From Desulfobacterales bacterium (lineage in GTDB: Bacteria; Desulfobacterota; Desulfobacteria; Desulfobacterales; UBA5616): a DNA stretch of 64,000 nucleotides. The position numbers were made by a program, and so were the translations under genes. This document shows positions 1,974 to 29,570 of the stretch, piece after piece (within the stretch, counting starts at the first letter, position 1; every line of letters begins with the position of its first letter). The stretch spans positions 109,161-173,160 of the forward strand of contig JAWODC010000001.1 in assembly GCA_046483495.1 (NCBI GenBank). The letters run 5' to 3'. A model generated the notes under the pieces. It did not search any database. It was given only the letters and a program-made list of their open reading frames with translations, and was not told the DNA's origin.

Positions 1974-1994
1974 AAAACCTCCGAAATACAATGG

Positions 1995-2846: not shown

Positions 2847-2921
2847 AGGACTACCCCCTGCTCCGATATATATTTGCCCGCTTCAGCGGCGGAACCAACA
2901 TGCCGTCTGCCTGTCTTGCCC

Positions 2922-4079: not shown

Positions 4080-4103
4080 GCGTCAACTCCTTTTCAATTT
4101 TCT

Positions 4104-5441: not shown

Positions 5442-5871
5442 TTTACGCTTCCTTTCTTCGGAAAAATATAATTTTGCCAATAATTTCTTGCGCTCATGCA
5501 AATTTATTTAGATCAATTTATTCCTGGCCTGTCAAGCATCTTCTCATGGGAACCCACGCCGGAAGTGTACCCTGCGCCGTGATGCGGGCAATTTTTTAAA
5601 CCCGATCATAACCGCTTATTGCTGCATTATTTTCTATTTACTAATGCTGTTCGATATGCTTTAATTTTGCAAAATTTCCAAGCGGCTCATATGCCCTCTG
5701 ATCTTCTCACGAAAACGGCCGCGTTCGGCTTCCGGGTCTCCGTAATCCACCGCCGTGGGGTTGTATGAAGGTGAGGGGGTCGCGTCTACGTTTATGTCTT
5801 CGTGCGATCCTTATTCATCGCTCGTCTAACATTTTAATTCGTTATCGTCTTATATCAGCGGGAGGTCTTTC

Positions 5872-7200: not shown

Positions 7201-7231
7201 ACAGACCGGATGCCGAGAAAATTCCGTTTAT

Positions 7232-7263
7232 GTGAAGCCCCGGAAGGGGCTTTACGTTTTTTT
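7232..7263 (+). terminator. Rho-independent terminator after the DUF362 gene
   Basis: Stem gtgaagcccc-ggaa-ggggctttac followed by g and T7. Confidence 0.8.
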
Positions 7264-7292
7264 GGCACCCTTCGCCCTGCTGTTCAACGGCG

Positions 7293-8732: not shown

Positions 8733-8741
8733 AAGCTGAAA
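8714..8741 (+). repeat. Short heptamer tandem repeat (GCTGAAA x3 plus GGTAAAA)
   Basis: gctgaaa gctgaaa ggtaaaa gctgaaa, read directly across the stop codon. Confidence 0.6.
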
Positions 8742-8806
8742 ACCGGGTGGATGGTACCGGTTTATTCCGATGATTATACGACAGATTATGCTGCACTCCA
8801 CCTATT

Positions 8807-11377: not shown

Positions 11378-11395
11378 CGATTTTCCTTTGCAGTA

Positions 11396-12313
11396 TTACA
11401 GGTCATCCGGAACGGAACAGCAGGTCGGCTGAAATCCAATCCGACAGCCGGCATTCCCGGCATAAGCAACAGCCTCGTCGGACGGCAGCGCCATTCTGTC
11501 TACCCCGGCCTCGATGGCCAGAATCTCCATTTTCCGGTTGCCGCGCTCCCGGGCGCATCCCAGGCTGATTACGCTTTTGGGCAGAGCCGATCGTGTATAG
11601 GCGATAACATCGCCGACCTCCTCGGCGGTTGGCTTTCTGAACCGCATGGAAGGTGTTCCCGGAAGTCTCATCAAGGATACGATAATGATCCGGCGAACAG
11701 CAAACCGCGAAAGGAGATCGACGGCCTTCTTCTCACCTTTCAACTTGCCGAAGTGAAGCCCGCATACGATATGAGGCGCCACCTCCAACCCCGCCCGATT
11801 AAGGGATTCCAGTGTTTTCACAATTCGTGATACGCCGTATGGCGCATGGCAGACCTGTTTTAGTGTGTCATCTTCTCCAACCACGTCGATCAAGACCTGA
11901 TCGACCCCTGCCGTCTTGAGTTCATGCGCCGTCCGATCATCCATCATGCCCCCGTGAATGGAAATATGCAGCCGGGTTTTTTGTTTGATTTCGCGGATAG
12001 CGGGCAAAAACCTGCTCCACGGAAGCTCTCCACGGCTATTGCATCCGCCTGTCAGCAGAACCCCGGGATTTCCCTTCTCATAGAGAGTGGCGCAGCGCCG
12101 AATCAACGCTTCATTCGTTGCCGCCGGGAACATGGACTGCAGCAGTTTGCCGCGGCAATGGTCGCATTGAAGTTCACAACGATTTCCAGTAATGGAAACA
12201 GCATCGTATGCCCCGGTCATCCCGGCGTACCGGAACATGCCCGGAACATAAAATGTGATTTTTTTCAAGGCTTCCATAACCCTTTCGACCGTTGTCGAAG
12301 CATCACCGCACAT
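11396..12313 (-). CDS. lipS1: Radical SAM sulfur-insertion protein, LipS1-type lipoyl synthase subunit
   Basis: SITGNRCELQCDHC; LGCAR and terminal TCCS match the LipS1 GC(M/A)R and CC signatures; start uncertain. Confidence 0.8.
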   Translation of the reverse strand: MCGDASTTVERVMEALKKITFYVPGMFRYAGMTGAYDAVSITGNRCELQCDHCRGKLLQSMFPAATNEALIRRCATLYEKGNPGVLLTGGCNSRGELPWSRFLPAIREIKQKTRLHISIHGGMMDDRTAHELKTAGVDQVLIDVVGEDDTLKQVCHAPYGVSRIVKTLESLNRAGLEVAPHIVCGLHFGKLKGEKKAVDLLSRFAVRRIIIVSLMRLPGTPSMRFRKPTAEEVGDVIAYTRSALPKSVISLGCARERGNRKMEILAIEAGVDRMALPSDEAVAYAGNAGCRIGFQPTCCSVPDDL

Positions 12314-12384
12314 CGATGATTCGTTTGGACCGATGGATCAGTCATGCAGACGCAATGTCAAGCGTTTGTTATAAGGATTTCGCC

Positions 12385-13470
12385 TCATGCAGGGCATATT
12401 CCACCCAATGCTTCGAAAATCGAATCCAGGGGTTGAATAAATTCGCTGCACGTCATGCCGGGTATATGGATCAACCCGTTCTCAAAGTATTTTTCGATCG
12501 TACCCCGAATACGATGATGATCCAGGGGGGCCCCTTTGATTTCGGCCATGAGGTCGTAAACCCCCCGTGAGGGAAATGACAACATGTCCCCGGTAATCAG
12601 GAAATCCTTTACCTGAACATTATTCCTGTGGATCGTCAGTGTAAATCGTACCATCCCTGAATCGAATTTTTTGAGGGCGCTTAGCGTTTTCGGCGCTCGA
12701 GATGTTGACTTTATCAGGTGAATCCATGCTTCCGATTGAAAAAACGGCAGCCTTGTACCCATCATCGCTTCTTCTTTTTCCGTCAGCGGCATGGATTCGA
12801 GATGGATATCGAATGTTTTTTCAAATGCCTTGACAAGTTCTGCTTTCACAAGGGAAATCGGGGGAATGCTACCAAGCTCGGCGGTCATGCTGGTAACCCG
12901 TTGTCGAATGGAGTCGATTTCCCGTACACTGAGTTTTTCGACGGGAATATTCAGGCAGCCGAGCATTTCACTGATATCGCCGTCCATTAAAATCGTTCCA
13001 TGGAACAGCAGTGCACCATACAGCTCGGTACCGCCGGTGCCGGATATCTTCCGCCCGTTGACTTCAATGTCGTTCCTGGGCCTGAATTCAGCCCTTACCC
13101 CAAGCTTGGCCAATGCCCGAATGACAGGTTCGCACAGGCGTTGAAAAAGCTTTTCCGTTATGAAATCGACATTCAGGAAGGTCTTGTCGCAGATGATTTC
13201 CCATCCAAGCTGGCGTTCATCGAGAAAAACAGCCCCCCCGCCGGTGATGCGTCGATTGACCTGAATGCCCATTTTCCGGCAATAATCCGAACGGATTTCT
13301 TCTTCCGCAGCCTGATGATGCCCCAACAGTACAGCGGGAGGAGAGAACTGTAAAAATCGGACGGTATTCAGGGTTTTGCCGTCGCCTTTAAGCGCCAGTA
13401 AAACATCGTCCAATGCCATGTGCTCAGCCGCTGTCATGGGCGGCAGGTCGAGAAGTCGGAACGTGTCCAT
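12385..13470 (-). CDS. Lipoate/octanoate:protein ligase, Lpl(AB)/sLpl(AB) type
   Basis: RRITGGGAVFLD, PRNDIEVNGRKISGTGG, LFHGT; C-terminal accessory LplB-like domain (ITGDMLSFP). Confidence 0.85.
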   Translation of the reverse strand: MDTFRLLDLPPMTAAEHMALDDVLLALKGDGKTLNTVRFLQFSPPAVLLGHHQAAEEEIRSDYCRKMGIQVNRRITGGGAVFLDERQLGWEIICDKTFLNVDFITEKLFQRLCEPVIRALAKLGVRAEFRPRNDIEVNGRKISGTGGTELYGALLFHGTILMDGDISEMLGCLNIPVEKLSVREIDSIRQRVTSMTAELGSIPPISLVKAELVKAFEKTFDIHLESMPLTEKEEAMMGTRLPFFQSEAWIHLIKSTSRAPKTLSALKKFDSGMVRFTLTIHRNNVQVKDFLITGDMLSFPSRGVYDLMAEIKGAPLDHHRIRGTIEKYFENGLIHIPGMTCSEFIQPLDSIFEALGGICPA

Positions 13471-13593: not shown

Positions 13594-15522
13594 TCAGGGC
13601 AATGCCGCGGACAAAACGGATGCGACGGTTCTCGACAACCGGGACGGGTTCTCCACTTTGCCGCCTTCACCGATAACCGCCATATCATACAGCAGCCCGG
13701 CATAATCTTTCAAAACCGGATCTTTTCGATTTGCGTCATAAAGGGCCCTGATTTTTTCCATCACCGGATGTTTGACGTTCAGTTCAAGAATCCGCTTGGA
13801 CTCCGGCGGCTTCTGGCCGGTGGCCGATAACACTTTTTCCATATAGGCGCTCAAATCGTATTGATCACCTGAAAGGCAGGACAAGGAATCCGTAAGGCGT
13901 GCGGAAGGACGAACGTCTTTAACCTTTTCTTCCAACTGGGATTTGACGAAGGCAAAGAACGGTTTGTACGCTTCTGCATCCATTTCCTCTTTCTCATCGA
14001 GGTCCAGTTCTCCCCTTTCCGCACTTTTGAATTTCTTTTTCTCATACTCGGCCAACGATTCCACAACCCATTCATCCACCGGATCCGTCATCAGAAGGAT
14101 CTCGTATCCTTTATCCTTCAGCCTTTCGAGCAGCGGGCTGTTGTTGAGCAGGGAAATGTTTTCTCCGGTAAGATAGAATATTTCCTTCTGGTCCGGCTTC
14201 ATCCGGGAGACATACTCCGAAAGCGATACCCATTTTCCTTCAGAGGCCGTGGTCTTGTAGCGCAACAGATCGGCGATTCTCGTCTTGTTTTCCGGGTCCG
14301 TATGAATGCCGATTTTGAGAATGGGTCCGAATTCTTCGAAGAACGCGGTAAATTTTTCTTCCTCGAAATCTTTAATGAGATCGAGTACTTTTTTTACCAG
14401 GTTTCGGCGTATATTTCGAATAAGACGGTCCTGTTGGAGAATTTCACGGCTGACATTGAGGTTTAAATCCGGAGCGTCCACCACGCCTTTTACGAATCCC
14501 AGATACTCCGGAATCAGCTCCCGGCAGTCCTCCATGACAAAAATACGCTTGCAATAGAGATGGACGCCGTGCCGCTTTTCGGTGCGAAACAGGTCAAACG
14601 GCGCTTTAGCGGGTATGTAAAGCAGAGCGTTGTATTCGGTGGTTCCTTCGAACTTCATGTGCAGCCTGGCGAGCGGCGGATTCCAGTCATGGCTGATGTG
14701 GGAATAGAACTCGTTGTACTCGTCGTCCGTAACCTCATGCTTATCCCGCGCCCAGATCGCTTTCATGGAGTTCAGGGTTTCTTCACGGATAACGGTGCGG
14801 GTGGTCTTTCCGATGGCTTTTCCATCCTTATCCTTGATTTGCTCCTCTTCCGGAATGGGCTCTTCTTTCTCGACGTCCATGACAATAGGATAGGTGACGA
14901 AATCCGAATGCTTCTTGATAATCCGCCGAATCACCCACTCATCGGTAAAATCGATTCCGTCTTTTTCGGGTTTTTTCAGTTTCAGAATAATGGTCGTTCC
15001 CCTTCCGTCCTTTTCGACGGGTTCAATGGAAAAAGTACCGTCCCCCGAAGACTCCCACTTCACCGCATTGTCCGATCCTGCAGCCCTTGTAATCAGTGTC
15101 ACCTTTTCCGAAACGATGAACGCACTATAAAACCCTACGCCGAACTGACCGATCAATTCGGGCGTTACGATGGTTTCGTGGTCCAGCCGCTGCAGCGCTT
15201 CAGCGAACTCGGCGGTTCCGCTTTTGGCGATCGTGCCGATGTTTTCCAGGACCTCATCGTAGGTCATTCCGATGCCGTTGTCGGAAATTTCCAGAATCCG
15301 ACCGATGCCGTCCCTTTTGATTTTGATTTTCAGTTCGGTGTCCTCTTTCATCACTTCCGGATCGGTCTGTGATTTGAACCGGAGACGATCCAGTGCATCG
15401 GAAGCGTTGGATATCAACTCTCTCAAAAAGATTTCCTGGTTCGAATAAAGAGAGTTGATAATCAGGTGCAGCAGCTGCTGCACTTCTGTCTTGAACTCAT
15501 GGGTTTCTTTACGCGGCGTCAT
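13594..15522 (-). CDS. htpG: Molecular chaperone HtpG (Hsp90)
   Basis: [47 protein letters not shown]. Confidence 0.98.
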
Positions 15523-15918: not shown

Positions 15919-17103
15919 CTACGGCATCGATTCCTTTATCAATTCCGTAATGTCCATCACCTTGAGATCGATTTTGTTGCGTCGCACATAGGTGGTCATC
16001 GTCCGAACGCATTGCTGGCAGGATGTCACCACAGCTTCGGCACCGGTTTTTAAAATTTCTTCGATCTTTTTTCCGGCGATTTCAGCCGCCAATTCGGCAT
16101 CGATCATTTCCAGGTTCCCGCCGCCGCCGCAGCATCGGCAGTTCTCCCTGTTATGTTCCATTTCCACCAATTTGACCCCGGGAATGCGACGGATCACCTC
16201 CCTGGGTGCATCGAATTCGCGGGCCCCCCTGCCCAAATCACAGGGGTCGTGGTATGTGACGGTGATGTCGTTCTTTTTCAGCGGAATCCGGTTTTCTTCG
16301 ATCAGGTTGTGCAAAAACCGGGTGACATGATAGAGGTTGAAGTCATTCGGGTAGTATTCGCGCCACATCTGATAGCAGGAGGGGCAGGCGAACACGACGG
16401 TTTCAGCCTTTTTGCGCCGAATCGCCGCAACATTGTGTTCGATGATCCGACTCACTTTGTCTTTCAATCCGGCTCCCAATAGCGGGAAGCCGCAACACCA
16501 CTCGTCTTCTCCAAGAAGCGTAAAGTCCACACCCGCCGCTGTAAAAATTTCTGCAAGCGCCATGGGAATTTTCTGGACCATGGGAAAATATGCCGCTACA
16601 CAGCCGGTAAAGTAGACCACCTCGGCCTCATCCTGAATGTATCCATTCTCCGGCGGGTTTTTGGCATCCTCCACCCATTCGGCCCGTTCTTCGTTGTCCT
16701 CGTCGAACACGTTATGGCTTTCGAACAGATTGTTCCGTATCCGGTCGATTTGACCCGGATAAGCCTTTGAATGGACAAGATCCTGTCGAAGATTCAGCCA
16801 GATGTCTTTCAGATGAATGCCGACCGGACAGACCTCCTGGCAGCTACCGCACAGCGTACATCGGAAAACCGTTTCGCTGTATGGCTTCATTGCATCCGCA
16901 TCCGGAGTGCTTTTGCCCGCCAGCCGCCGCATCAGTCCGTAACGTTTCCGATTGATTTTCTTCAATTCATCCAGGCGATAAATGCCGGACAGACGACCGT
17001 CCTTTGTCGCCAGCACCGCCGGGCAGACTTCGGCACACAAGCGACAGTTGGTGCAGGCGCTCATGGCCAGCAAGTCCTTTTTGCTGTATGATGAATTTTT
17101 CAT
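15919..17103 (-). CDS. HdrD/GlpC-like Fe-S oxidoreductase (2x[4Fe-4S] plus two CCG domains)
   Basis: CTNCRLCAEVCP and CTLCGSCQEVCP; FTGC...EWCCG...ACPSC and HDPC...CCGGGG...SCQQC; ATG 17103 lies 1 bp after the upstream stop. Confidence 0.9.
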   Translation of the reverse strand: MKNSSYSKKDLLAMSACTNCRLCAEVCPAVLATKDGRLSGIYRLDELKKINRKRYGLMRRLAGKSTPDADAMKPYSETVFRCTLCGSCQEVCPVGIHLKDIWLNLRQDLVHSKAYPGQIDRIRNNLFESHNVFDEDNEERAEWVEDAKNPPENGYIQDEAEVVYFTGCVAAYFPMVQKIPMALAEIFTAAGVDFTLLGEDEWCCGFPLLGAGLKDKVSRIIEHNVAAIRRKKAETVVFACPSCYQMWREYYPNDFNLYHVTRFLHNLIEENRIPLKKNDITVTYHDPCDLGRGAREFDAPREVIRRIPGVKLVEMEHNRENCRCCGGGGNLEMIDAELAAEIAGKKIEEILKTGAEAVVTSCQQCVRTMTTYVRRNKIDLKVMDITELIKESMP

Positions 17104-17104
17104 T

Positions 17105-17527
17105 TTAATCCTGTTGATACTTCTCGATATCGGCAAGCATCCAATGCTCGATATCTGCAGGCGTATGAATCAGATCCTGCACTTCGGACATGTCGTCGGG
17201 TTTTATTTTGTACATCCAGCCCTCACCATAGCAGTCCCGATTAATCAGTCCCGGATCGGTTTCCAGCTTTTCATTGGATGCCATAAGCTCCCCGTTTACC
17301 GGGGCATACACCTTGCCCAACCATTTTCCCGACTCCACCTGGGCGAACTTTTTTCCTTTTTTCAGGGACTTTCCTTCAGGGGGCAGTTTCACAAATACAA
17401 TGTCACCGGCCATCTGCTGGGCGAAATCATCCATTCCCATGATCAACAGATCCCCTTCGACCTTTACCCAGTAATGATTCTCCTCGTAATAGAGGTCTTC
17501 CGGCATCCGATACCCCTGTATTTCCAT
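17105..17527 (-). CDS. Glycine-cleavage-H-like lipoyl carrier protein (ESGKW type, LbpA-like)
   Basis: LYYEENHYWV, GMDDFAQQMAGDIVFVKLP, lipoyl-Lys in VESGKWLG, APVNG, YGEGWMY. Confidence 0.9.
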   Translation of the reverse strand: MEIQGYRMPEDLYYEENHYWVKVEGDLLIMGMDDFAQQMAGDIVFVKLPPEGKSLKKGKKFAQVESGKWLGKVYAPVNGELMASNEKLETDPGLINRDCYGEGWMYKIKPDDMSEVQDLIHTPADIEHWMLADIEKYQQD

Positions 17528-17531
17528 CGTT

Positions 17532-19286
17532 TCACTCCTTTTCTTTTTTAAAGCCGTTTATTATCATCAGTACCGGCGCCGTAATCATGTGCAGCATCCG
17601 GCCAAACGGCAGATATGCGATAAAGAGTCCGGTGAACACGGCATGAACGTACCACATATATCCGTAAATGTCAGCAATTCCCGTCATTCCGGTAAACAGC
17701 AGGGCCGTTGCATAGCCCAGAAACGACCATTCGGCGCCGGCTGGAAATCCGGTCATAGCGATTCGCATCCCCTCGATGATGAATCCGACGATTACTATGG
17801 CCGAGAGGATCGAAATGCCGATCCAGTCCTGTCCGGGCATATGTTTGAACCCGGCGGCCGGTCGGCGGCTTTTCGAGACAGCGGCCGAAAAGGCACCGAA
17901 AATCACCATAAGGCCGGTAATATCGAACAAAAAAGCGCCGAACGGATGGTTTTTATCCAGCATGGCCCGCGTTAAATCGGTATTCGGCAGGGTTTTCGAC
18001 ATCACCAGTGCCGCAATTCCCCAGCTGAATCGAATGATAAAGGGGTAGAAAATCAGCGCGTGAACAGCCCACCGTCCGGGTGATTTGTAAAATAGTTTTC
18101 GCTGGCAGAGCACATCCCAGAATAATGCGCCGCAACCGGAAGCGATCCTGCGGAAAAAAATCGCGGGTATCGCCTTCCGGGTCCTTTCACCGGATTTTCG
18201 AGTGCTGTCTTCTTCGTGCCGATGGTACGTCAATCCAGCCGAAAACACGTAAAAAAAGGAAATCAAACCAAGGGCAAAAACAGCCAGCGAGGCAAGCGTC
18301 ACCCAATCACCGATCGAAAGTGTTGCGGTATGACAGGGCATGCAGATAATGCTTTTGGCGGGCAGCACCATGGCCGAAGCCCCCAGTTCATTGCCCGTAT
18401 AATGGCATCGCCTGCATGAACCCTCATCAGCGAGCCTCATCTCGTGGATGCTGCTTCCAACTCCGGAAGTGTAAGCCTTACGGTAGTGTACGATTCCCGA
18501 AACCGGGGCTTTAACGGGCATGACACCGGATAAATGGCATGCCCGGCACGATACCCGGACATGGGCGTCATGGAGGGTCTTTTCATCATGATAATCGTGG
18601 CACCGCCGGCAATCGGTCAACGGCTGTTCGCCATGACCGTATTCAGCGGATTCCGGGTGGCATGCCATACAGGAAAGGTCGGCATGGGCCGTGTCCGTGT
18701 ACCTCTCTGCATCGATCATCGGAAAGGCCGGATCGAATCGATCCCGGTTTGTTTCTGCATGACAGTAAAAACAGAATGCGGCGATGCTTTCGTTGCGTCC
18801 CGTCCCGGCGGGCGGCAGTTCATGACAAACCACACAGGATTGGTCGGAAGAATAGGGAGAAGGCAGCCGGCTTTCGCTTTCATGGCAGACACCGCATTGC
18901 TTGTCCACCGGCGCCTCGGGATCGAATTCGTCCGGTATGCCGAAACCCAATTGGTAATGCGGATCGTGGCAGGCCAGGCAGTTTTCAATGTCCTGCTCAC
19001 GTTGAACGGTCTTTCCACCGTGTTCACCGAGCGCAATGAAATCCGCCACCGCATCATGACAGGATGCACAGCTTTCCGGGCTGAAAAGATCCGCCGGGGA
19101 TTTCGTGACATTTGCCGGATCCGGATGGGACCCCGGATCGATATCGACATGGCAATCCGTACATGCCGTTTGGCCGTGCACAGAGACATGATAACGCTGC
19201 AAATCCACCAGCCAGGATCCGGAGGCATCCGGGCAGAAAAATATCGGCAATACGACAAACCAGCTGAGAACAACGCAAATTTTCAT
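17532..19286 (-). CDS. Multiheme cytochrome c (11 CxxCH) fused to a NarI/DsrM/HdrE-like membrane domain
   Basis: Signal-peptide-like N-terminus; CTDCH, CASCH, CLACH, CGVCH, CVVCH, CFYCH, CMACH, CRRCH, CRACH, CRRCH, CMPCH; then about 6 hydrophobic helices with WAVHALIF and WYVHAVF...YLPFGRMLHMI. Confidence 0.85.
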   Translation of the reverse strand: MKICVVLSWFVVLPIFFCPDASGSWLVDLQRYHVSVHGQTACTDCHVDIDPGSHPDPANVTKSPADLFSPESCASCHDAVADFIALGEHGGKTVQREQDIENCLACHDPHYQLGFGIPDEFDPEAPVDKQCGVCHESESRLPSPYSSDQSCVVCHELPPAGTGRNESIAAFCFYCHAETNRDRFDPAFPMIDAERYTDTAHADLSCMACHPESAEYGHGEQPLTDCRRCHDYHDEKTLHDAHVRVSCRACHLSGVMPVKAPVSGIVHYRKAYTSGVGSSIHEMRLADEGSCRRCHYTGNELGASAMVLPAKSIICMPCHTATLSIGDWVTLASLAVFALGLISFFYVFSAGLTYHRHEEDSTRKSGERTRKAIPAIFFRRIASGCGALFWDVLCQRKLFYKSPGRWAVHALIFYPFIIRFSWGIAALVMSKTLPNTDLTRAMLDKNHPFGAFLFDITGLMVIFGAFSAAVSKSRRPAAGFKHMPGQDWIGISILSAIVIVGFIIEGMRIAMTGFPAGAEWSFLGYATALLFTGMTGIADIYGYMWYVHAVFTGLFIAYLPFGRMLHMITAPVLMIINGFKKEKE

Positions 19287-20128
19287 TTGGACAAAAGCTC
19301 TTCCGCTCGATATGAACTCCTCACAAATGGACCGGCAAACACGTGTTCAAATCCCGTTTTACGCGCAACTGACGCCAGCATATCGAATTCTTCCGGTGGA
19401 ATATACCGCCTGACCGGTGCATGATCCCTTGACGGCGCCAGGTACTGACCCATTGTCAAAATCCGGCAGCCCGATGCGACCAGATCTTGAAAAACGTTCT
19501 CCAGTTCCGATGCGGTTTCTCCCAATCCGAGCATCAGTCCCGATTTCGTCCTTAGTCCGGCTTCGGCCGCCTGGGAAAGAACCGTCAGTGACCTGGCATA
19601 ATCCGCCTGTGGCCTGATCTCCCGGTAAAGGCGAGGGACCGTTTCCACGTTGTGGTTGAAGACATCCGGCCATACACGGCATATGGCTTCCACCGACGAT
19701 TGTTCACCTTTAAAATCCGGAATGAGCAACTCTACCGTCGATTCGGGCGACCGTTTTCTGACCGCTTCGACGGTCGACACAAAATGGCCTGCACCGCCGT
19801 CCGGCAGGTCATCACGGGTAACCGAAGTGATGACCACATGGGAAAGGCCCGCTGCTTTTACGGCCTGCGCCACATGCATCGGCTCCTTATCATCCGGCAT
19901 CAGCGGGGCCGTGGTATGCGGCACCGCACAAAACCGGCAGTTCCGCGTACAGCGGTCGCCCAGTATCATGAATGTGGCCGTTCCACGATGAAAGCATTCA
20001 CCGATATTCGGGCATTGTGCGCTCTGGCATACGGTGGCTAATTTCAGTCGGCTGAGCATGCTCTCCATGCGCGAAAGCGACGCGGCTGATGGGGCCGGCC
20101 GCTTCAGCCAAACAGGATGGCCCTTCAT
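19283..20128 (-). CDS. lipA: Lipoyl synthase
   Basis: TVCQSAQCPNIGEC, CTRNCRFC, TSVTRDDLPDGGA, NHNVETV, GPFVRSSY; start corrected to ATG 20128. Confidence 0.95.
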   Translation of the reverse strand: MKGHPVWLKRPAPSAASLSRMESMLSRLKLATVCQSAQCPNIGECFHRGTATFMILGDRCTRNCRFCAVPHTTAPLMPDDKEPMHVAQAVKAAGLSHVVITSVTRDDLPDGGAGHFVSTVEAVRKRSPESTVELLIPDFKGEQSSVEAICRVWPDVFNHNVETVPRLYREIRPQADYARSLTVLSQAAEAGLRTKSGLMLGLGETASELENVFQDLVASGCRILTMGQYLAPSRDHAPVRRYIPPEEFDMLASVARKTGFEHVFAGPFVRSSYRAEELLSK

Positions 20129-20159: not shown

Positions 20160-21536
20160 TCATTTTCGACGCCTCGGCAGATACAGTGCCCAGCCCTGAG
20201 CGTCCTGGCCCGCCATTGGGATCGTCTCCGAAAATGTGGGATGAACGGCCATGCAGTAGGCAAGGTCTTCGACCGTCGCCTCCATCTGCATGGCCAGCGA
20301 GGCTCCCCAGATCAGTTCTACGGCATTGCTGCCCACAATGTGAACACCCAGGATTTCGCCGTATTCGGCATCGGAAATCACCTTCACCATCCCTTCCGTC
20401 TCGCCGTAAGCCATGGCAACGCCGTTAACGGAAACCGGGCATTCTCCGATTTCGACTTCCAGGTCCTGATCATCGGCCTCTTCTTCCGTAATGCCGACGG
20501 AGGCGGCTTCCGGAATCGACCACAATCCGCGCGGCGCCAGGGAAGCATTGTATGTCCGGGACCCGCCCATGGCGTTTTCAGCAGCGGCGACCCCCATGCA
20601 GGTCGCCGCGTAACTGAGCTGCCATGAACCGGTGATATCGCCGATGGCATATATATGATCCGAACTCGTCTTCAGCGTATCATCCACCGCGATAAAACCG
20701 TTGTCATTCAATTCGACACCGGCCCTGTCCAGACCGATATCCACATTGGGCTTTCGGGATGAGACGAGCACCTTTTCCACTTCCACCGTTTTCGCTTCGG
20801 ACCCGGCCAGTTCGGCAGTGTATCCGGCCTTGCCCTTTTTTACGGCGCCGAGCGTGTATCGCGGCAAAAATTCGATGCCCTGCTCCCGAATCGCCATCGT
20901 CACACGTTGACTGACGGTGCCGTCCTCAGCCGGAAGGGCTCTGGGAGATTCGGATATCATGGTTACCTTGGCGCCGAAAGCATTTAAGATCAAAGCCATT
21001 TCCACTTCGATGGGTCCGGCGCCGATAACGAGAACCGACGACGGTACGGCCGTCATTTCCAGGACGTGGTCCGTAGTCATTGCCGCAGCATCGTCAAGCC
21101 CGGGAATGTCCGGCATATGAATGGCGGTCCCGGTTGCAATGATAATGGATTTTGTATTCAAAACCGTTTCACCGGCCTGGACCTCACCGGGACCTTTCAA
21201 TCGGCCGTATTCGGCTATGACATCAATTTTGTTGTTCTTGCATAATCCTTTCATGCCCATTTGAATATCTTCGGGCACGCCCTTTCGGCGCTTGACGATC
21301 GTTTCTAAATCCACACCGTTGACAGCCGCCTGTATGCCGAAATCACCGGCATGCTCGATGGTGCGCTTCATCCGCGCCGCCCTGTTCCATATCTTGGCCG
21401 GTATGCATCCCCGGTTTACGCATGTTCCCCCCATTTGTGCCGGTTCGAGTATGGCCGTTTTTCCGCCCAACTGCGAAGCCCGTATTCCCGCGGCATATCC
21501 TCCCGGTCCGCCGCCGATCACAATCACATCATACAT
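20160..21536 (-). CDS. lpdA: Dihydrolipoamide dehydrogenase (E3)-like flavoprotein with atypical NAD-binding motifs
   Basis: GGGPGGY, GGTCVNRGCIP, AIGD, HPTFSE; second dinucleotide motif reads GAGPIE. Confidence 0.88.
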   Translation of the reverse strand: MYDVIVIGGGPGGYAAGIRASQLGGKTAILEPAQMGGTCVNRGCIPAKIWNRAARMKRTIEHAGDFGIQAAVNGVDLETIVKRRKGVPEDIQMGMKGLCKNNKIDVIAEYGRLKGPGEVQAGETVLNTKSIIIATGTAIHMPDIPGLDDAAAMTTDHVLEMTAVPSSVLVIGAGPIEVEMALILNAFGAKVTMISESPRALPAEDGTVSQRVTMAIREQGIEFLPRYTLGAVKKGKAGYTAELAGSEAKTVEVEKVLVSSRKPNVDIGLDRAGVELNDNGFIAVDDTLKTSSDHIYAIGDITGSWQLSYAATCMGVAAAENAMGGSRTYNASLAPRGLWSIPEAASVGITEEEADDQDLEVEIGECPVSVNGVAMAYGETEGMVKVISDAEYGEILGVHIVGSNAVELIWGASLAMQMEATVEDLAYCMAVHPTFSETIPMAGQDAQGWALYLPRRRK

Positions 21537-21695: not shown

Positions 21696-22718
21696 TTACA
21701 TTCTCACCACAACTTTCACCGAACTGTCAACGCTGCACTGAATATCGAATGCTTCTTTTGCCTGTTCAATGGGAAATTCATGGCTTACAATTTTCATCCG
21801 GTCCACCTTCTTGTCCCGCATCAGTTCAAGCGCCCTTACCGCGTCGTCCGGGACGAACCCGTAGGAGCCGAATACCTTTACGTGTTTTGCCACCATCGGC
21901 ATCATCTCCAGTGTTACCGGGGCTTCAAACGCGCCATGAACCACGACGGTGCCGTATTCACGGGCAACCAGCAGCGCCTGTTGAAGCACCGGCGGTTCGG
22001 GCCTCTCCTGGATATACCCGACGCAGTCATATACAATATCCACCGCAGGGGATGTCATTGCGCCGCCGAGAATCGTAACCGGCACCTCGCCGGTAAGATC
22101 GACGGCCCGCTGATACACATCCTCTTTGGCGGCATTGACAACCTCATCCACCCCCAGGTCCCCGGCCATCGCCAGCCGTTTGTCCGAAACATCCACCATG
22201 ATTATCTTGCTCAATGCCGTTTCCATCACTGCGAGGGTCTGAACGATCCCCAGACCGATAATCCCGGCCCCGAATATCATGACGTTTTGTCCGTCGGCCG
22301 GGCTTCCCAACCATGCGGCATGAAGCGAATTGCCGAGGGGTTCCGTAGTCGCCGCTTCGACCCAGTTCACGGCATCGGGGATTTTATAGACGTTCAACCC
22401 TAAAAAAGCGGGGCTGACGGGCACATATTCCGCCATTCCGCCGAATGTCAGGGCGGTGACCCGATCCCCGACATCGATCCCGGAAACATCCTTCCCGACG
22501 CTCACCACTTCACCGGAAAATTCATGGCCGGGTATCATTCCACCGTCCGAAGGCCGGCAAAGCGCTTCGGCAAAAACGCCCAATCGATACATGTGCAAAT
22601 CCGATCCGCAAATGCCGCATGCATGGACCTTGACCAGGATGTCCGCATCGCCGATTTCCGGCATGGCCACCTCTTCGGTGGTGATTTTCTTCGGTTCATG
22701 ATAGATGACTGCCTTCAT
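21696..22718 (-). CDS. Zinc-dependent medium-chain alcohol/diol dehydrogenase (2,3-butanediol dehydrogenase-like)
   Basis: CGICGSDLH, GHEFSG, GDRV, EPL, GAGIIG; four-Cys structural-Zn lobe absent. Confidence 0.85.
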   Translation of the reverse strand: MKAVIYHEPKKITTEEVAMPEIGDADILVKVHACGICGSDLHMYRLGVFAEALCRPSDGGMIPGHEFSGEVVSVGKDVSGIDVGDRVTALTFGGMAEYVPVSPAFLGLNVYKIPDAVNWVEAATTEPLGNSLHAAWLGSPADGQNVMIFGAGIIGLGIVQTLAVMETALSKIIMVDVSDKRLAMAGDLGVDEVVNAAKEDVYQRAVDLTGEVPVTILGGAMTSPAVDIVYDCVGYIQERPEPPVLQQALLVAREYGTVVVHGAFEAPVTLEMMPMVAKHVKVFGSYGFVPDDAVRALELMRDKKVDRMKIVSHEFPIEQAKEAFDIQCSVDSSVKVVVRM

Positions 22719-22756: not shown

Positions 22757-23440
22757 TTACAGGCGGCGCAAATCGTGCGTTTCGGCTTCCGGCATGAGGT
22801 GTGCCTGCACCTCGAAAACGGATGAAAATTCCCGGATGACAACACCGGCCACCTCATCCATATTCAGGTGCCGGTTCAGCTTTTTTTTCATGGATGTTAC
22901 GCCCTTGTCTGAAATGCCGCATGGGTGGATCAGATCGAAGTAGGACAAATCCGTATTCACGTTCAAAGCGAATCCATGTTTGGTCACCCATTTCTTCACT
23001 TTGACGCCGATCGCCGCGATTTTTTCATTTTCGATCCAGACGCCCACGTGTTCATCATCACGGCGCCCTTCAAGCGTGTAAGCACCAAGTGACCGAATCA
23101 CCACCTGTTCAAGATTTCGAATATACCGATGAATGTCATTTCCCCATCGGTTCAGATGCAAAATGGGATATCCCACGATCTGCCCCGGACCGTGAAGCGT
23201 AATGCTGCCGCCCCGATCCGTCGGAAAGACGGCAACGCCTTTTTGCTCCAGTACGGCCGTCGAAACAAGAATGTTTTGCCGGTCCGTACCCTTGGCCAGC
23301 GTCAGCGTCGGGGGATGTTCCAGAAGCAGCAGTGTATCGGGGAAATCCCCCTTTATCCGCATGGATTGGAGTTTATTCTGGAGTGAAAATGCAGCATCGT
23401 AAGCCATAACTCCGAGCCTGTAGACGTCCAGCATTTTCAT
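22757..23440 (-). CDS. lipB: Octanoyltransferase
   Basis: LLLEHPP, DRGGSITLHGPGQIVGYPI, KIAAIG, HGFALNV, IHPCG. Confidence 0.95.
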   Translation of the reverse strand: MKMLDVYRLGVMAYDAAFSLQNKLQSMRIKGDFPDTLLLLEHPPTLTLAKGTDRQNILVSTAVLEQKGVAVFPTDRGGSITLHGPGQIVGYPILHLNRWGNDIHRYIRNLEQVVIRSLGAYTLEGRRDDEHVGVWIENEKIAAIGVKVKKWVTKHGFALNVNTDLSYFDLIHPCGISDKGVTSMKKKLNRHLNMDEVAGVVIREFSSVFEVQAHLMPEAETHDLRRL

Positions 23441-23462: not shown

Positions 23463-24743
23463 CTACACCAGCAGGATGGGGTTCTGAAGGATTTGTCCAA
23501 ACCGCCCCAGGAACATGCCGGCCGGCACACCGTCGAGCACGCGGTGGTCAAACGTAAATGAAACCGGCATCATGGGCCGAATGACAATTTCGCCGTCTTT
23601 TACCACCGGACGGTCCATTATTCCGCCCGGCTGCAGAATCGCCGATTGGGGTTGATTGATAATCGGCGTTCCGAACCCCCATCCACCGCCCATGCCGCCC
23701 ATGCTGGTAATGGTGAACGTGCCGCCGAACACATCATCCGGCATGAGGTTGCCATCCCTGGCTTTCTGAACCGTCGCTTTCAGCTCCTGACTGATTTCGG
23801 ACAGGGACTTCTTGTCGGCATTCCTGATCACCGGTACGATCAAACCGCCGCCCAGCACATCCGCTCCCTGGAGCGCGACCGCTACACCGATATTGATGTC
23901 TTCCCAGACAACGACTTCGTTGTCGATGACGCTGGCATTCACCATGGGCAGCTCTTTCAAGACCTTGGCAGCCGCCTTGACGTAAATGTCGGTATAAGAA
24001 ATCCTCACCCCGAGGTTTTCTTCATTGGCGATCAATTCTTCCCTGAATTTTTTTAGTCCGGTCACCTCGAGTTCGGACATCGCGGTCAGCTGGGCCGCCA
24101 CCGTGAGACTCTGCACCATATGGTCGGCGATGGCCTTTCTCATTCCCCTGAGCTTCATTTTTTCTTTTACTCTGATGCCGCCGAGGGTGTCGGCAGCTTC
24201 CGCCACTGCTGAAGGGGCGGGTTCCGGTGCCGCGGCGGCCGGTTGAGACGGAGCGGCTGCCTGTTCGGCGATCGCCTTTTCCACGTCCTGCCGGGTTATC
24301 CTCCCGCCGGGTCCGGTGCCTTCAACCGTCGAAAGATCGACGCCTTTTTCTTCAGCCATTTTCCTGGCAACCGGAGATGCCTTTACTTTTCCGCCCTTTG
24401 CCGCGGGTTTTTTCGCCGCTGCTTCGTCGGCAGGCGCCGGCGCAGCCGCTTGCGGCGCGGCTGCGGCGGGCGCTCCCGACGCCTTCTGCAGTTCGGAAAG
24501 CTCTTCCGGTGACTGGGCGAGTTTGCCGACTACTGCACCGACCTTTTCCGTTTGATCGACGGGAACCATGATGTGCAGGTATCCTGCATCCGGCGATTCC
24601 ACTTCCCATGATGTCTTGTCGGTTTCAATCACAAGAATGACATCGCCTTCATTGACCTGATCGCCTTCATTGAATTTCCATTCCGTCAGTGTCGCTTCCT
24701 TCATACTCATGCCTAGTTTCGGAATATGAATTTCTACAGCCAT
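23463..24743 (-). CDS. Dihydrolipoamide acyltransferase (E2), single lipoyl domain
   Basis: ETDKT lipoyl site, Ala/Pro linkers, ASPVARK...[13 protein letters not shown] binding domain, [15 protein letters not shown]; start at ATG 24743. Confidence 0.93.
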
Positions 24744-24933
24744 TTGTAACGTTCCTTTCACGTAATCAGTGCCATATTGAAATGGCGTCTTTCAGCCTTA
24801 TGCGGCGTTTTTCCTGTTTGGTCCTCAGATAAAACGCATGTCGTTTACCGCAGTTTCAAATAAAGAACAGAGCCCTGCCCGGAATAAACGCCTGCCGTTT
24901 TAGACCGCTGTCGGCCGGCGTCCGTCTTTGCCG

Positions 24934-25896
24934 CTACCCGGTGACGGCCTTTACCGCCGCAGCGATCTGGTCCTGCTGCGGAAGCACAAACTGCTCCATG
25001 GCGCCGGGCGGAATGGGGTAGTTTTTGGCAGCCACACGCTGAACCGGCGCATCCAGGTAGTCAAATGCCTTCTCCACGATCTGCATGGCGATTTCTCCTG
25101 CGGCACCGCACCTCGAGGTGTCTTCATCGACAACAATCGCCCGTCCTGTTTTTATGACGGACGCGATGATCGTGTCGATATCCAGCGGCTCAAGAGAGCG
25201 TGGATCGATGACTTCGATGCTGACATCGTCCTTCATCTTTTCGGCGACCGAGAGGGCGAAATGCACTTGCATGCCTGTTGCCACCATGGTGACATCCGTG
25301 CCTTCCCGCTTGATATCGGCTTTGCCAAGCGGGACGACATATTCTTCTTCCGGAATTTCACCGGAAGTCCCCAACAGGGCCTTGTGATACAGGTATACCA
25401 CGGCATTATTGTCCCGAATGGCGGATTTCATCAGTCCCTTGGCATCGTAAGGCGTGGACGGCACCGCGATTTTAATCCCGGGCGTATGCATGTAATAAGA
25501 AACCGGCGCCTGTGAATGCTCGGCACCGAGCCCGAGGTATCCACCCATAGCCGCCATGAAAACCACCGGTATTTTCTGGGTTCCTTCATGCATGAACCGC
25601 CATTTTGCCGCCTTGCAAAGAATTTCGTCAAAGGCGATATACATAAAATCGGCGAACATAAAATCGGCCACCGGCCGATATCCGGTCATGGCCGAACCTA
25701 CCGCAGCGCCGGCAATGGCTGTTTCCGAGATGGGCGTATCCATGATCCGGTCCGCCCCGAACCGCTGCACCAGTCCGGCGGTGGTCCCGAACGCTCCCTG
25801 TTGAATACTTTCACCCAAGATAAATACCTTCTCATCACGCTCCAGTTCTTCGGCCAAAGCTTCGTTGACGGCCTGAACATATGTAATCTGTTTCAT
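24934..25896 (-). CDS. ThDP-dependent 2-oxoacid/acetoin dehydrogenase E1 beta subunit (copy 2)
   Basis: DTPISE, GYRPVADFMFADF, AEHSQ, PSTPYDAKGL, DPRSLEPLD. Confidence 0.93.
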   Translation of the reverse strand: MKQITYVQAVNEALAEELERDEKVFILGESIQQGAFGTTAGLVQRFGADRIMDTPISETAIAGAAVGSAMTGYRPVADFMFADFMYIAFDEILCKAAKWRFMHEGTQKIPVVFMAAMGGYLGLGAEHSQAPVSYYMHTPGIKIAVPSTPYDAKGLMKSAIRDNNAVVYLYHKALLGTSGEIPEEEYVVPLGKADIKREGTDVTMVATGMQVHFALSVAEKMKDDVSIEVIDPRSLEPLDIDTIIASVIKTGRAIVVDEDTSRCGAAGEIAMQIVEKAFDYLDAPVQRVAAKNYPIPPGAMEQFVLPQQDQIAAAVKAVTG

Positions 25897-25910
25897 CGTT
25901 ATTCCCCCTG

Positions 25911-26885
25911 TTATTCGGCATAGAGAAAATCATCCAGTATCGATGCATCTTTTGGAAGCATTTGCGGACATTGGGACTGGAATGCATCCAGCCGGGCGAC
26001 TTCGTCGTCGGCTTCCCGGTCGATCTCGTCAATCGCTTCTTCCGTCATGATCCCCTGTTTTATCAGCTTTTCTTTGAAGATGATGATCGGATCTCGTTTG
26101 CGCCAATCGGATTTATCTTCATCGGTTCTGGGTTTTGTGTGATCGACGTCCGGAACGCCCTCGGCATGGGCCCGCATGCGATAGGTTTTGCATTCGATCA
26201 AAGACGGGCCGTCCCCCGCTCTGGCACGGTCCACCGCAGCTTCGACGGCTTCATGAACGGCAAGCACATCCTGGCCGTCGACCACAATACTCGGCATGCT
26301 GTAGGCGGCGGCCAGGTCCGCAATATCCTCGCGGGCGAATGCATCGCGGATGGGCACAAACTGGCCGAACTGGTTGTTTTCGCAAATCCACACGATGGGG
26401 AGTTTCCAAACTGCCGCCAGATTCATGGACTCGTGAAGAGTCCCCCTTCCGGAGGCACCATCACCGAAAAAGCTGAGCACGGCCTGGCCTTTCTTGTTTT
26501 TCTGCGCCGTCAACCCCCATCCCAGGGAGAGAACGAAACCGCCGCCGATGGTTCCGCTGATTCCGAAAATGCCGCGTTCTTCAGCTGTCGGCCCCTCGAT
26601 TTCTCCTGGATCCTTATCGAAGTGCCGGCACACCCATCCTTTCGGCGAAATGCCCCTGGCGAGATAAAAACTGATCGCATGCCCCCGATGATGGGGGTAA
26701 AGGTAGTCATCCTCTCTCATATTGAAGGTGCAGGCACCTACGCCGACAGCCTCTTCGCCGACGCCCGCGTGATAAAATCCGGCCATTCGGCCGGAGTTGA
26801 GCGCCTCGACGAGGAGGGCATCCAATTTACGGGCACGGACCATCAGGGAATAAAATGTAACCAATTGCTCTTTTTCCAATTTCAT
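25911..26885 (-). CDS. ThDP-dependent 2-oxoacid/acetoin dehydrogenase E1 alpha subunit (copy 2)
   Basis: HHRGH, ThDP motif GDGAS...ENNQFG, DGQDV, TYRMRAH. Confidence 0.93.
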   Translation of the reverse strand: MKLEKEQLVTFYSLMVRARKLDALLVEALNSGRMAGFYHAGVGEEAVGVGACTFNMREDDYLYPHHRGHAISFYLARGISPKGWVCRHFDKDPGEIEGPTAEERGIFGISGTIGGGFVLSLGWGLTAQKNKKGQAVLSFFGDGASGRGTLHESMNLAAVWKLPIVWICENNQFGQFVPIRDAFAREDIADLAAAYSMPSIVVDGQDVLAVHEAVEAAVDRARAGDGPSLIECKTYRMRAHAEGVPDVDHTKPRTDEDKSDWRKRDPIIIFKEKLIKQGIMTEEAIDEIDREADDEVARLDAFQSQCPQMLPKDASILDDFLYAE

Positions 26886-26953
26886 GCTTCCCTCCTTTTT
26901 CGTGGGGTCTATCCAGGAGTGATCGATGCTTAAGCTTACAGCAGGAACAGGCC

Positions 26954-27916
26954 CTACTTCATAACACTCTCGATGGCTTCTTGAATATCTTTGGGTTGAG
27001 GCAGAACATAATCTTCGAGGAAACCGGCCGCAATCGGCATATCGGCTGCGGCTACCCGCACAATGGGTGCGTCCAGGTAGTCAAACGCATTTTCGAGGAT
27101 CTGAGCGCTGATTTCCGAAGTAACGCCGCAACGCTTGTTGTCCTCGTCGACGATCACGCACCTGCCGGTTTTCTTGACCGATTCGATTATGGTGTCGATA
27201 TCGAGAGGCTCCAGGGTTCTGGGATCCACCACTTCCACACTGATCGTGTCTTTGATTTTCTCGGCCGTTTCAAGGGCTAAGTGGACCATCCTGGAAATCG
27301 CCACCACGGTGACGTCGGTTCCTTCACGTTTGATATCCGCCTGCCCGAATGGAATCAGATATTCCTCCTCCGGTATTTCGCCGGGCAACCCGAGCAATCC
27401 CTTGTTGTAGAAAAAAATCACGGGATTGTTGTCGCGAATGGCGGTTTTCAGAAGCCCCTTGGCATCATACGGCGTGGACGGAACGGCGAGCTTAAGTCCC
27501 GGTGTATGCATGACCAGGGCTTCCGGGCACATGGAGTGTTCGGCACCGATTTTCATGCCCCCGCCCATGGCCGCCATGATCACTACCGGGACCTTTACTT
27601 TTCCGCCGTGCATGAAATGCCATTTCGCGGCTTTGAGCAGTATTTCATCTCCTGCGATATACATAAAATCGGCGAACATCATATCCGCTACCGGTCTATA
27701 TCCCGCCATTGCGGACCCGATTGCGGCTCCGGCGACCGCCGTTTCAGCCAGCGGCGTATCCATGACGCGCTCCGCGCCGAACTCCTGTACAAGTCCGCTG
27801 GTGGTTCCAAATGTCCCCTGCTGAACATTTTCCCCGATGATGAACACCGTTTCATCCCGACGCATTTCTTCACGCAGCGCCTCGTTTATCGCCATAAGGT
27901 ATATTGTCTGTTTCAT
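26954..27916 (-). CDS. ThDP-dependent 2-oxoacid/acetoin dehydrogenase E1 beta subunit (copy 1)
   Basis: DTPLAE, GYRPVADMMFADF, AEHSM, PSTPYDAKGL; start at ATG 27916. Confidence 0.93.
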   Translation of the reverse strand: MKQTIYLMAINEALREEMRRDETVFIIGENVQQGTFGTTSGLVQEFGAERVMDTPLAETAVAGAAIGSAMAGYRPVADMMFADFMYIAGDEILLKAAKWHFMHGGKVKVPVVIMAAMGGGMKIGAEHSMCPEALVMHTPGLKLAVPSTPYDAKGLLKTAIRDNNPVIFFYNKGLLGLPGEIPEEEYLIPFGQADIKREGTDVTVVAISRMVHLALETAEKIKDTISVEVVDPRTLEPLDIDTIIESVKKTGRCVIVDEDNKRCGVTSEISAQILENAFDYLDAPIVRVAAADMPIAAGFLEDYVLPQPKDIQEAIESVMK

Positions 27917-28119
27917 ATGTCGGAGACCTCCTAAGTTGGCGCCCACCCGAAAAACGGACGGCTCATCCCGTTGTTCGGCCGGACATAAGTTGTTTTACCC
28001 GGCAACCGTTGGGGGCATCGATCCCTGCAGGTGAAAATTCAATTCGCCTTGAATCGGATCGATCTGCTTCCGGTTAATCTCGTTTCGTGGACGTATGACT
28101 TTCATCGAATGGCACGCGC

Positions 28120-29097
28120 CTATTCGGCATATACCAGTTTTTTGAGAATATCGGCGTCCGGAATGGGGCTGTCAATGCAGAATTTCTCCGTCAGGTCCGC
28201 CTCTTCGGCCGCTTCTTTATCGATTTTATTCACCATCTCCTTCTTCAGCACGCCCTGTTTCAGCAGTTTAGCCTTGAACGACTCGATGGGGTCCCGTTTT
28301 TTCAATTCAGCGATCTCCTCCTCGGAACGAGCTTCGGTATGAGATACATCCGGGCTTCCTTCGGAATGGGAGCGGTAGCGCGCGGTTTTTGCCTCGATCA
28401 AGGATGGGCCGTCTCCTTTTCTGGCCCGCTCCACGGCCGCTTCAACGGCTTCATAAACGGCGATCACATCCATGCCGTCCACGACGATTCCGGGCATATT
28501 GTATCCGCCCGCCAAATCGGCGATATCCTCCTTGGGGAAGGTGTCCTTGATGGGCGTAAACTGGGCCATGCCGTTGTTGTCGCACAACCAAACGATGGGC
28601 AGTTTCCAGACGGCGGCCAGATTGAACGCCTCATGAAGGGTGCCTCGATTGGACCCGCCGTCACCAAAGCAGGCAAGCACCACCTGCTGTTTTCCAGCCT
28701 TTTTGGCGGCCAATCCCCACCCCAGAGACATGGGAAATTGTGAACCGATCGTACCCGCGGCGCCTAGAGCGCCGTATTCCGGCTCAGCAAAATGGAATCC
28801 TGAAATTCCAAAACAGGTACCGGTTGCCTTTCCCCAGTGCTCGGCCAAAAAACCTTTCCCATCCAGACCCTTGCCGATGAGATAGCCGATGCCGTGCCCC
28901 CGATGATGGCCCCAGAGGTAATCATCTTTTCGAAGCGGTGCCGTAGCCCCCACGGCCAAGGCTTCCGATCCCTGCCCGCTGTGGTAAAACGAGAGAACCT
29001 TCCCCTCCTGAAGACCCCTGATGGTCAGCTCATCGAGTTTGCGGGTCCGAACCATGTTCCGATATAACCGGATCAAATCGTCCTTTCCAAGTTTCAT
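28120..29097 (-). CDS. ThDP-dependent 2-oxoacid/acetoin dehydrogenase E1 alpha subunit (copy 1)
   Basis: HHRGH, GDGGS...DNNGMA, DGMDV, RYRSHSEG; ATG 29097 behind GGAGG. Confidence 0.93.
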   Translation of the reverse strand: MKLGKDDLIRLYRNMVRTRKLDELTIRGLQEGKVLSFYHSGQGSEALAVGATAPLRKDDYLWGHHRGHGIGYLIGKGLDGKGFLAEHWGKATGTCFGISGFHFAEPEYGALGAAGTIGSQFPMSLGWGLAAKKAGKQQVVLACFGDGGSNRGTLHEAFNLAAVWKLPIVWLCDNNGMAQFTPIKDTFPKEDIADLAGGYNMPGIVVDGMDVIAVYEAVEAAVERARKGDGPSLIEAKTARYRSHSEGSPDVSHTEARSEEEIAELKKRDPIESFKAKLLKQGVLKKEMVNKIDKEAAEEADLTEKFCIDSPIPDADILKKLVYAE

Positions 29098-29570
29098 TAC
29101 CTCGCCTCCTCTAAATGTATGAATGTTCTTATTTTCATGTTCATATAACGTACCCGTAAAACGGCACATTCACGCTTTTTTTTAATACGGCGGCAACGCC
29201 GATTCAAGGGATGACATGATTTACAACACCTTTCAATCCAATCGATCTTATTAATTTGATACATATGATTCATTCAGTGTGTAAAAAGAACCCGCACGCG
29301 GCGTTTCGAAAGTGACGGGTTTTGCAAATGTCGTTTGGGCCCTTTACGGACGGCTACGAAAATGGCAGCAGGCACCTGAAGGGGTATCGGGCGGCGCACC
29401 GAATGAAAACCCGCATCGAAAAGATATTCCGGCACAGCGACACTCCAGATGATGTATGCTGGGTTACTAGAAGTGCCGGATTAAGTCAACCAAGATAAAT
29501 TGCGCCAATCCCCTAAAATCCAAAAGCCTATAAGGAGCACCCCTTGCGGGGCGCACCCCGTCGGCATGGC

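Follow-up and report, generated by a model that had tools for sequence, protein, structure and literature searches.

The stretch of DNA analysed here, referred to throughout as the window, comprises 64,000 nucleotides of a Desulfobacterales bacterium (UBA5616) and spans positions 109,161 to 173,160 of contig JAWODC010000001.1 in assembly GCA_046483495.1. Our subject is a group of three adjacent genes within it, termed the module, which encode a multihaem cytochrome fused to a membrane domain, a lipoyl carrier related to the H protein of glycine cleavage (termed H) and an HdrD-like protein with two CCG domains (termed the CCG protein):

17532..19286, minus strand: fusion of an 11-haem c-type cytochrome with a NarI/HdrE-type b-cytochrome domain, 584 amino acids (aa)
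17105..17527, minus strand: GcvH/LbpA-related lipoyl carrier (H), 140 aa, with Lys68 and a single invariant cysteine, Cys99
15919..17103, minus strand: HdrD-like CCG protein with motifs for two cubane [4Fe-4S] clusters and a complete pair of CCG domains, with CPSC and CQQC

An earlier note on this DNA had described the three genes as tightly coupled and had read their principal motifs. Both descriptions were recovered here: the genes are separated by 4 bp and then 1 bp, and the ATG of the cytochrome gene overlaps the lipA stop; the cytochrome contains exactly 11 CxxCH motifs, the carrier matches GCV_H (E 4.5e-41) and places its ESGKW lipoyl-lysine motif at Lys68, and the third protein has two CxxCxxCxxxCP motifs as well as its two CCG domains. 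The most likely start of the CCG gene is the ATG at 17103, giving 394 aa. Promoter and terminator scans of the region returned close to chance numbers (18 against 13.7 expected and 27 against 21.4, respectively). The genome appears in RNA runs at small shares only (0.05-0.15), and contigs from four RNA libraries (99-100% identity) cover pieces of the H, cytochrome and CCG genes, although none spans two of them and DNA is a possible source. The genome carries dsrA, and its own DsrK is located on contig C45.

The CxxCH motifs of the cytochrome lie between residues 42 and 319, preceded by an N-terminal hydrophobic stretch and followed by the membrane part, and the c-haem region contains 12 further histidines available for bis-His ligation. 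Five hydrophobic segments downstream of the haem domain fit a predicted topology in which periplasmic c haems are carried on a NarI scaffold. The Pfam NarI match (PF02665) is weak (E 0.0013, 18.8 bits, under the 22.9 cut-off), but a profile built from 58 sequences matches NarI chains in the PDB (E 3.6e-4) and the Atlas model of the membrane protein resembles NarI-named clusters with a template modelling (TM) score of 0.86. Because profile and model agree, the assignment of a NarI-like membrane domain holds up as a prediction despite the sub-threshold Pfam score, as the earlier note had proposed. All 51 orthologues possess His409, His548, His566, Arg419 and Gly423. No other histidine is invariant in the membrane part, and the three named are likely to be the haem b ligands. 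The same three-histidine pattern is described for SaEMO and HdrE, reported in the former and modelled in the latter, with a distal site in which a haem pair shares one histidine (bioRxiv 10.64898/2026.08.18.745454). Arg419, which may correspond to NarI His66, lies upstream of the point where the PDB NarI alignment begins. The number of CxxCH motifs varies from 9 to 11 across the 51 full-length cytochromes, and in one locus (L268) the CCG gene is followed by a NarI-only gene, giving an HdrDE-like pair without c haems. Since the NarI domain stands alone behind CCG in this locus, the c-haem domain is an addition to the NarI core.

All 18 cysteines of the CCG protein, eight associated with the cubane clusters and ten non-cubane (C168, C203, C204, C240, C243, C288, C324, C325, C362 and C365), are invariant in 74 sequences. 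The closest solved structure, the best PDB match, is EtfD (9OJN, E 1.2e-39), which has CPHC where the module protein has CPSC; Ser242 and both CC pairs are invariant. In EtfD and SaEMO a histidine fills the substrate site and one cysteine is lost, so that the clusters are non-catalytic and serve only as electron carriers; Hdr possesses ten cysteines and an open substrate site (PMC13083937; bioRxiv 10.64898/2026.08.18.745454). Neither the histidine nor the cysteine loss is found in the 74 module CCG sequences. The CCG protein reached the cut-off of no named family, scoring far below those of DsrK (104 against 400 bits), TmcB (96 against 735) and HmcF (65 against 750).

Lys68 of H, which aligns with the lipoyl lysine of GcvH, is likewise invariant in 74 sequences, and H has a higher mean column identity (72%) than the CCG protein (68%) or the cytochrome. 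In a quick tree of 143 columns the module H proteins form their own clade, apart from gcvP-adjacent GcvH, with a Shimodaira-Hasegawa-like approximate likelihood ratio test (SH-aLRT) value of 98, nested in a larger group (SH-aLRT 96) with four sequences labelled LbpA-like on their cysteine pattern alone; the genomes examined for a reference LbpA, six from the genus that includes G251, yielded only gcv-operon H proteins. The net charge around the lipoyl lysine, counted over a sequence window rather than on a surface model, is +5 in 73 module H proteins and -4 in 25 GcvH proteins from gcv operons. Residues 125-150 of the CCG protein carry a charge of -7, compared with +6 in a distant family that lacks H (see below); the opposition of a basic H and an acidic CCG segment is suggestive only. 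The H gene match in one locus (L227, G450:C74) contains a single internal TAA stop.

These features bear on two other roles for H. One is that it is an ordinary glycine-cleavage H protein acting in trans, its position next to the cytochrome and CCG genes being incidental. H passes the NCBIfam gcvH cut-offs, and gcvP is present in 11/11 of the other module genomes of the class, which is a point against the role that we propose for H. The earlier note had observed that gcvP and gcvT are missing from the window, and this absence extends past it, as neither GDC-P nor GCV_T has a match anywhere in the genome, which is 96.7% complete. Among the matches listed, a separate gcvH lies beside gcvP in 8/11 of the other module genomes. 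Module H differs from gcv-operon GcvH in clade and is opposite in charge. On this gene content and on its own clade we conclude from sequence that H is not the glycine-cleavage H protein, and we regard the in-trans explanation as very improbable. The other possibility is that H carries sulfur in the manner of LbpA, the module then acting on sulfane sulfur bound to protein, like the sHdr system. The grouping with four LbpA-like sequences, the LipS1/S2-type genes and the basic surface all recall LbpA systems; a basic rather than acidic ligase-facing surface is a criterion for LbpA (bioRxiv 10.64898/2026.10.01.755906), and cysteines near both termini are its hallmark (PMC6067878). The terminal cysteine pair occurs in 0/73 module H proteins, however, and those neighbours to which a function could be given encode carbon dehydrogenases, racemases and ligases, with no specific search made for sulfurtransferases. 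A sulfur-carrying role therefore appears improbable. No shdr genes were seen among the mapped neighbours, to which no sHdr-specific models were applied.

The three genes are conserved as a unit. In a class sample of 250 genomes, with the top 5-7 candidates per genome scored for CCG and cytochrome, H at an identity of at least 61% gave 11 matches in 10 genomes, the next best match being 47%; a CCG orthologue (at least 55%) was found in 11/250 and the full cytochrome in 10, in the same set of genomes as H, the eleventh CCG genome (G211) having its CCG gene at a contig start. Of 309 metagenomic CCG loci the best 80 were classified: 58 have H next to CCG and 3 have it nearby, 5 show another gene in its place and 14 offer too little upstream DNA, so that H is present in 61 of the 66 informative loci. 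The phylum sample covered 400 genomes, of which 24, belonging to 7 families, encode an H of at least 58% identity. Of 23 such loci, 20 have CCG directly beside H and 2 have a single gene in between, while in the remaining one (G370) CCG lies on a separate contig. The co-occurrence that the earlier note had proposed to check stands for the trio, although of 42 genome loci, selected via the cytochrome (11) or via H (31), just 16 carry genes for E1/E2/E3 or AcoX. A further 20 of the 42 have instead a GlcD/GlcF pair, none has both and 6 have neither, so the tie to the thiamine diphosphate (ThDP) dehydrogenases proposed in that note is only one of two forms. The 80 metagenome loci show the same two forms (15 E-type, 28 GlcD/GlcF-type and none with both, counting either strand), and two genomes (G239 and G469) possess both at separate loci. 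The upstream donor is interchangeable between E1/E2/E3 and a GlcD/GlcF pair. The view that the E1/E2/E3 link is incidental, taken from 1/12 loci, was overturned by these wider genome and metagenome counts. Frequent neighbours in the GlcD loci are lactate racemase, TRAP transporters or an aminotransferase. The CCG domain of the GlcF partner also has all ten cysteines and no blocking histidine (31/31), and 20 loci keep H with its invariant lysine together with the ligase while lacking a nearby E2 or other lipoyl acceptor.

Taken together, the Hdr-type cysteine set without a blocking histidine and the tight co-occurrence of the genes argue that lipoyl-H is probably the redox substrate of the membrane CCG/cytochrome complex, which would then act as a dihydrolipoyl-protein:quinone/cytochrome c oxidoreductase. 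The thiol/disulfide role for lipoyl-H had been put forward in the earlier note; it gains from these two observations and remains unproven. Further points in its favour are the swap of donors, the ligase encoded at many loci, the HdrDE-like pair of L268 and the related H proteins placed between other CCG pairs (HdrBC, GlcD-CCG) in L069, L070, L222, L270 and L271. Together with the CCG protein, the cytochrome/NarI fusion would form a membrane complex resembling HdrDE or DsrMK. Lipoylation of H at Lys68 could be carried out by LipB/LipA or, alternatively, by the linked ligase acting with LipS1/S2. The lipoyl group of H could be reduced by E3 in the E1/E2/E3 form, with electrons from NADH or derived from E2; in the other form this step would fall to the flavoprotein GlcD, which has a ten-cysteine CCG subunit of its own. 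The module CCG protein would reoxidise dihydrolipoyl-H at its pair of non-cubane clusters, and electrons would pass through the two cubanes to haem b and on to menaquinone or the 11 periplasmic c haems. Action of E3 on H is established for glycine cleavage and proposed for LbpA (PMC6067878; bioRxiv 10.64898/2026.10.01.755906).

Several observations weigh against this reading. The counts above come from related genomes and measure conservation rather than independent trials. In a quick tree the CCG orthologues form a clade (SH-aLRT 100) that is sister to the CCG proteins partnering GlcD (SH-aLRT 89). The function of CCG in GlcD dehydrogenases is undefined in the literature covered, and for this reason ten cysteines are no proof of disulfide chemistry. 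A distant family consisting of a 7-haem/NarI fusion and a CCG protein with all ten cysteines is found in 14/250 class genomes, and H is absent from 8/8 of its wide loci. The objection foreseen in the earlier note, that CCG and cytochrome homologues might occur without H, therefore applies to this family, while the module orthologues mostly have H. The cytochrome is joined to CCG without an intervening H in four metagenome loci (L135, L141, L158 and L173), and in G370 H lies with lipB, lipA and the ligase on one contig and the cytochrome-CCG pair on another. A 1391-aa fusion from an Anaerolineae metagenome-assembled genome (P0122, MFQ6102322.1) joins three H-like domains, GlcD and a Fer4/CCG region of module type, and thereby links the H, GlcD and CCG folds physically; its CCG domain is 37% identical to that of the window, it is a single sequence, and all three of its H-like domains have lost the lipoyl lysine. 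No other H fusion in longer proteins emerged from the H alignment at E 1e-12 among 8000 candidates, which is weak evidence. Finally, the lactate potential is about -0.19 V, and transfer of electrons from lactate to lipoamide is uphill under standard conditions; for lipoamide a potential of -0.29 V is given (PMC6067878).

Much of this would be accommodated if the cytochrome and CCG protein formed a wire like that of EMO/EtfD, fed directly by a flavoprotein (GlcD, E3 or electron-transfer flavoprotein, ETF), in which case H would serve only as a scaffold for lipoylation or as a docking adaptor without redox function. The closest solved structure, the position of CCG as sister to GlcD partners, the lysine-less domains of P0122, the distant family without H and the split arrangement in G370 are all compatible with such a wire, which is the main rival explanation. 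The module CCG protein nevertheless shows neither the blocking histidine nor the lost cysteine of those enzymes, and a scaffold would hardly be expected in the 20 loci that keep an invariant-lysine H and a ligase with no lipoyl acceptor nearby. Lipoylation of E2 by LipB/LipA needs no relay (PMC10332631), and H is the best conserved of the three proteins. We consider a non-redox H rather unlikely.

If lipoyl-H is the redox substrate, electrons could also run in the opposite direction, low-potential periplasmic electrons entering at the c haems, crossing the membrane as in HdrDE, DsrMK and Tmc and reducing lipoyl-H, from which E3 or GlcD/GlcF would make NADH or 2-hydroxyacids. Eleven periplasmic c haems with 12 spare histidines suit electron input, the characterised HdrDE runs in this sense, and the uphill step from lactate to the lipoyl group is sidestepped. 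The catabolic nature of the neighbours (ThDP dehydrogenases, lactate racemase and TRAP transporters) and the L268 form without c haems point the other way. We lean moderately towards oxidation of H by the membrane complex, and the reverse flow, whose probability is a part of that given to lipoyl-H as substrate, is on the whole unlikely.

Upstream of the trio on the same strand lies a set of lipoylation and dehydrogenase genes:

19283..20128, minus strand: lipA lipoyl synthase (TIGR00510 over cut-off), its stop overlapping the cytochrome start
20160..21536, minus strand: E3 dihydrolipoyl dehydrogenase (TIGR01350, 411 bits against a cut-off of 408.8)
21696..22718, minus strand: medium-chain (ADH_zinc) dehydrogenase, substrate not assignable, no model over cut-off
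22757..23440, minus strand: lipB octanoyltransferase
23463..24761, minus strand: E2 acyltransferase with one lipoyl domain
24934..26885, minus strand: second ThDP pair, E1 alpha 25911-26885 and E1 beta 24934-25896
26954..29169, minus strand: first ThDP pair, E1 alpha 28120-29169 and E1 beta 26954-27946

This E3 is likely to be the soluble partner of H in the E1/E2/E3 form. The two E1 alpha/beta pairs (24934-29169) are 53% and 67% identical and share one E2 and one E3; more E1 pairs are encoded elsewhere in the genome, on contigs C78 and C86. Four further genes follow the trio:

13594-15522: htpG, between the CCG gene and the ligase
12385..13470, minus strand: lipoate:protein ligase, sharing 53% identity with its counterpart after CCG in L255
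11396-12313, minus strand: LipS1-like radical S-adenosylmethionine (SAM) lipoyl synthase (best model LipS1, 215 bits, below cut-off)
10319-11377, minus strand: LipS2-like radical-SAM lipoyl synthase (best model LipS2, 225 bits, below cut-off)

The order ligase-lipS1-lipS2 directly follows CCG in nine loci (L137, L148, L164, L166, L255, L263, L267, L275 and L276), and for this reason the three genes (10319-13470) are part of the module, here split off by htpG. The earlier note, which had defined the trio correctly, had overlooked them beyond htpG. The ligase is present in 54/80 metagenome loci and 28/42 genome loci. Downstream of the lipoylation genes, the region 1197-10312 encodes a 2-hydroxyacyl-CoA dehydratase pair with two activators, etfA, a DUF362 protein and two convergent acyl-CoA synthetase-like genes.

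More diverse relatives of the module are found in other arrangements. In the distant 7-haem family (L185, L186 and L187-L192) the fusion and the ten-cysteine CCG gene are accompanied by an unassigned gene of 236-241 aa, for which an Atlas search found nothing above 0.9; in L186 (G205:C10:294000-310000) these genes lie behind those for an Fe-S protein, an aldehyde-oxidoreductase-like protein, a further multihaem cytochrome and a b cytochrome of the FdnI type. Relatives of H (41-50%) lie beside or between other CCG enzymes without a cytochrome in six loci (L069, L070, L222, L270, L271 and L273). Two of these (L069 and L070, in G027 and G083) represent a soluble lipoyl/CCG cluster without cytochrome, in the order GlcD-CCG, H (42%), GlcD-CCG, ligase, a GGR-family flavoprotein, lipS1, HdrC-like, HdrB-like and lipS2. 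In the other four the H relatives adjoin HdrBC-like genes or GlcD-CCG fusions and lactate racemase, and in L222 H is followed by what we take from the sequence starts to be pyridoxal-phosphate-synthase-like genes. Tandem proteins of 322 and 346 aa with Cys-rich N-termini and GcvH-like C-termini are encoded at G000:C20:14245-16257 (L002 and L003). An HdrA-like gene and a two-component system lie next to them, and comparable pairs occur in G253 and G254.

The module has parts in common with several known systems. HdrDE of Methanosarcina likewise combines a NarI-type b cytochrome with three histidines and a 2x[4Fe-4S]/2xCCG subunit with ten non-cubane cysteines, but its membrane subunit has no c haems, whereas the module has an 11-haem c domain fused outside, is hosted by a dsrA-bearing bacterium with no coenzyme M/coenzyme B (CoM/CoB) role shown, and co-encodes a lipoyl protein and a ligase. 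DsrMK(JOP)/DsrC, Tmc and Hmc share with the module a periplasmic cytochrome c, a NarI-type cytochrome b and a CCG subunit, and DsrK acts on a small carrier protein; the module carrier is of the GcvH fold rather than DsrC, and the DsrK, TmcB and HmcF cut-offs are missed. The sHdr-LbpA system resembles it in having a GcvH-related lipoyl protein, a dedicated ligase and LipS1/S2 near non-cubane enzymes, and differs in being soluble and sulfur-oxidising, with two terminal cysteines in LbpA (PMC6067878, PMC10332631); a lipoyl redox cycle with E3 has been proposed for it (PMC6067878). The module pairs its carrier with a membrane cytochrome and lies among genes for carbon dehydrogenases. EMO and EtfD, which are ETF:(methyl)menaquinone oxidoreductases (9OJN), share the CCG match and the three-histidine membrane domain (PMC13083937; bioRxiv 10.64898/2026.08.18.745454), but unite membrane, cubane and CCG domains in a single chain, whereas the module has separate genes in all mapped loci; no etf genes were found among the conserved module neighbours with an etfA reference included. 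The module would work like HdrDE/DsrMK with an LbpA-like carrier and falls within the full definition of no named family. We found no description of it in a literature search that left most subscription journals outside its reach. In public sources its H genes are labelled 'glycine cleavage H protein', a label that conceals the module.

We regard as evenly balanced the broader proposal that Hdr-type enzymes have, in addition to CoM/CoB and DsrC, a third kind of carrier that moves electrons by thiol/disulfide chemistry, namely the lipoylated H proteins of this clade. Lipoylated H would constitute a protein-bound redox pool linking interchangeable donors (E3, GlcD/GlcF or HdrBC) to a transmembrane cytochrome wire, which would be an unrecognised entry point into respiration for sulfate reducers. 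If this is correct, a substrate would be named for one class of CCG proteins of no assigned function, including GlcF-type subunits, and the small carrier would offer a convenient assay of non-cubane thiol/disulfide chemistry. Lipoate would gain a respiratory role outside dehydrogenase complexes and sulfur oxidation, and some sulfate reducers would possess a route by which electrons from 2-oxoacids, acetoin or 2-hydroxyacids reach the membrane.

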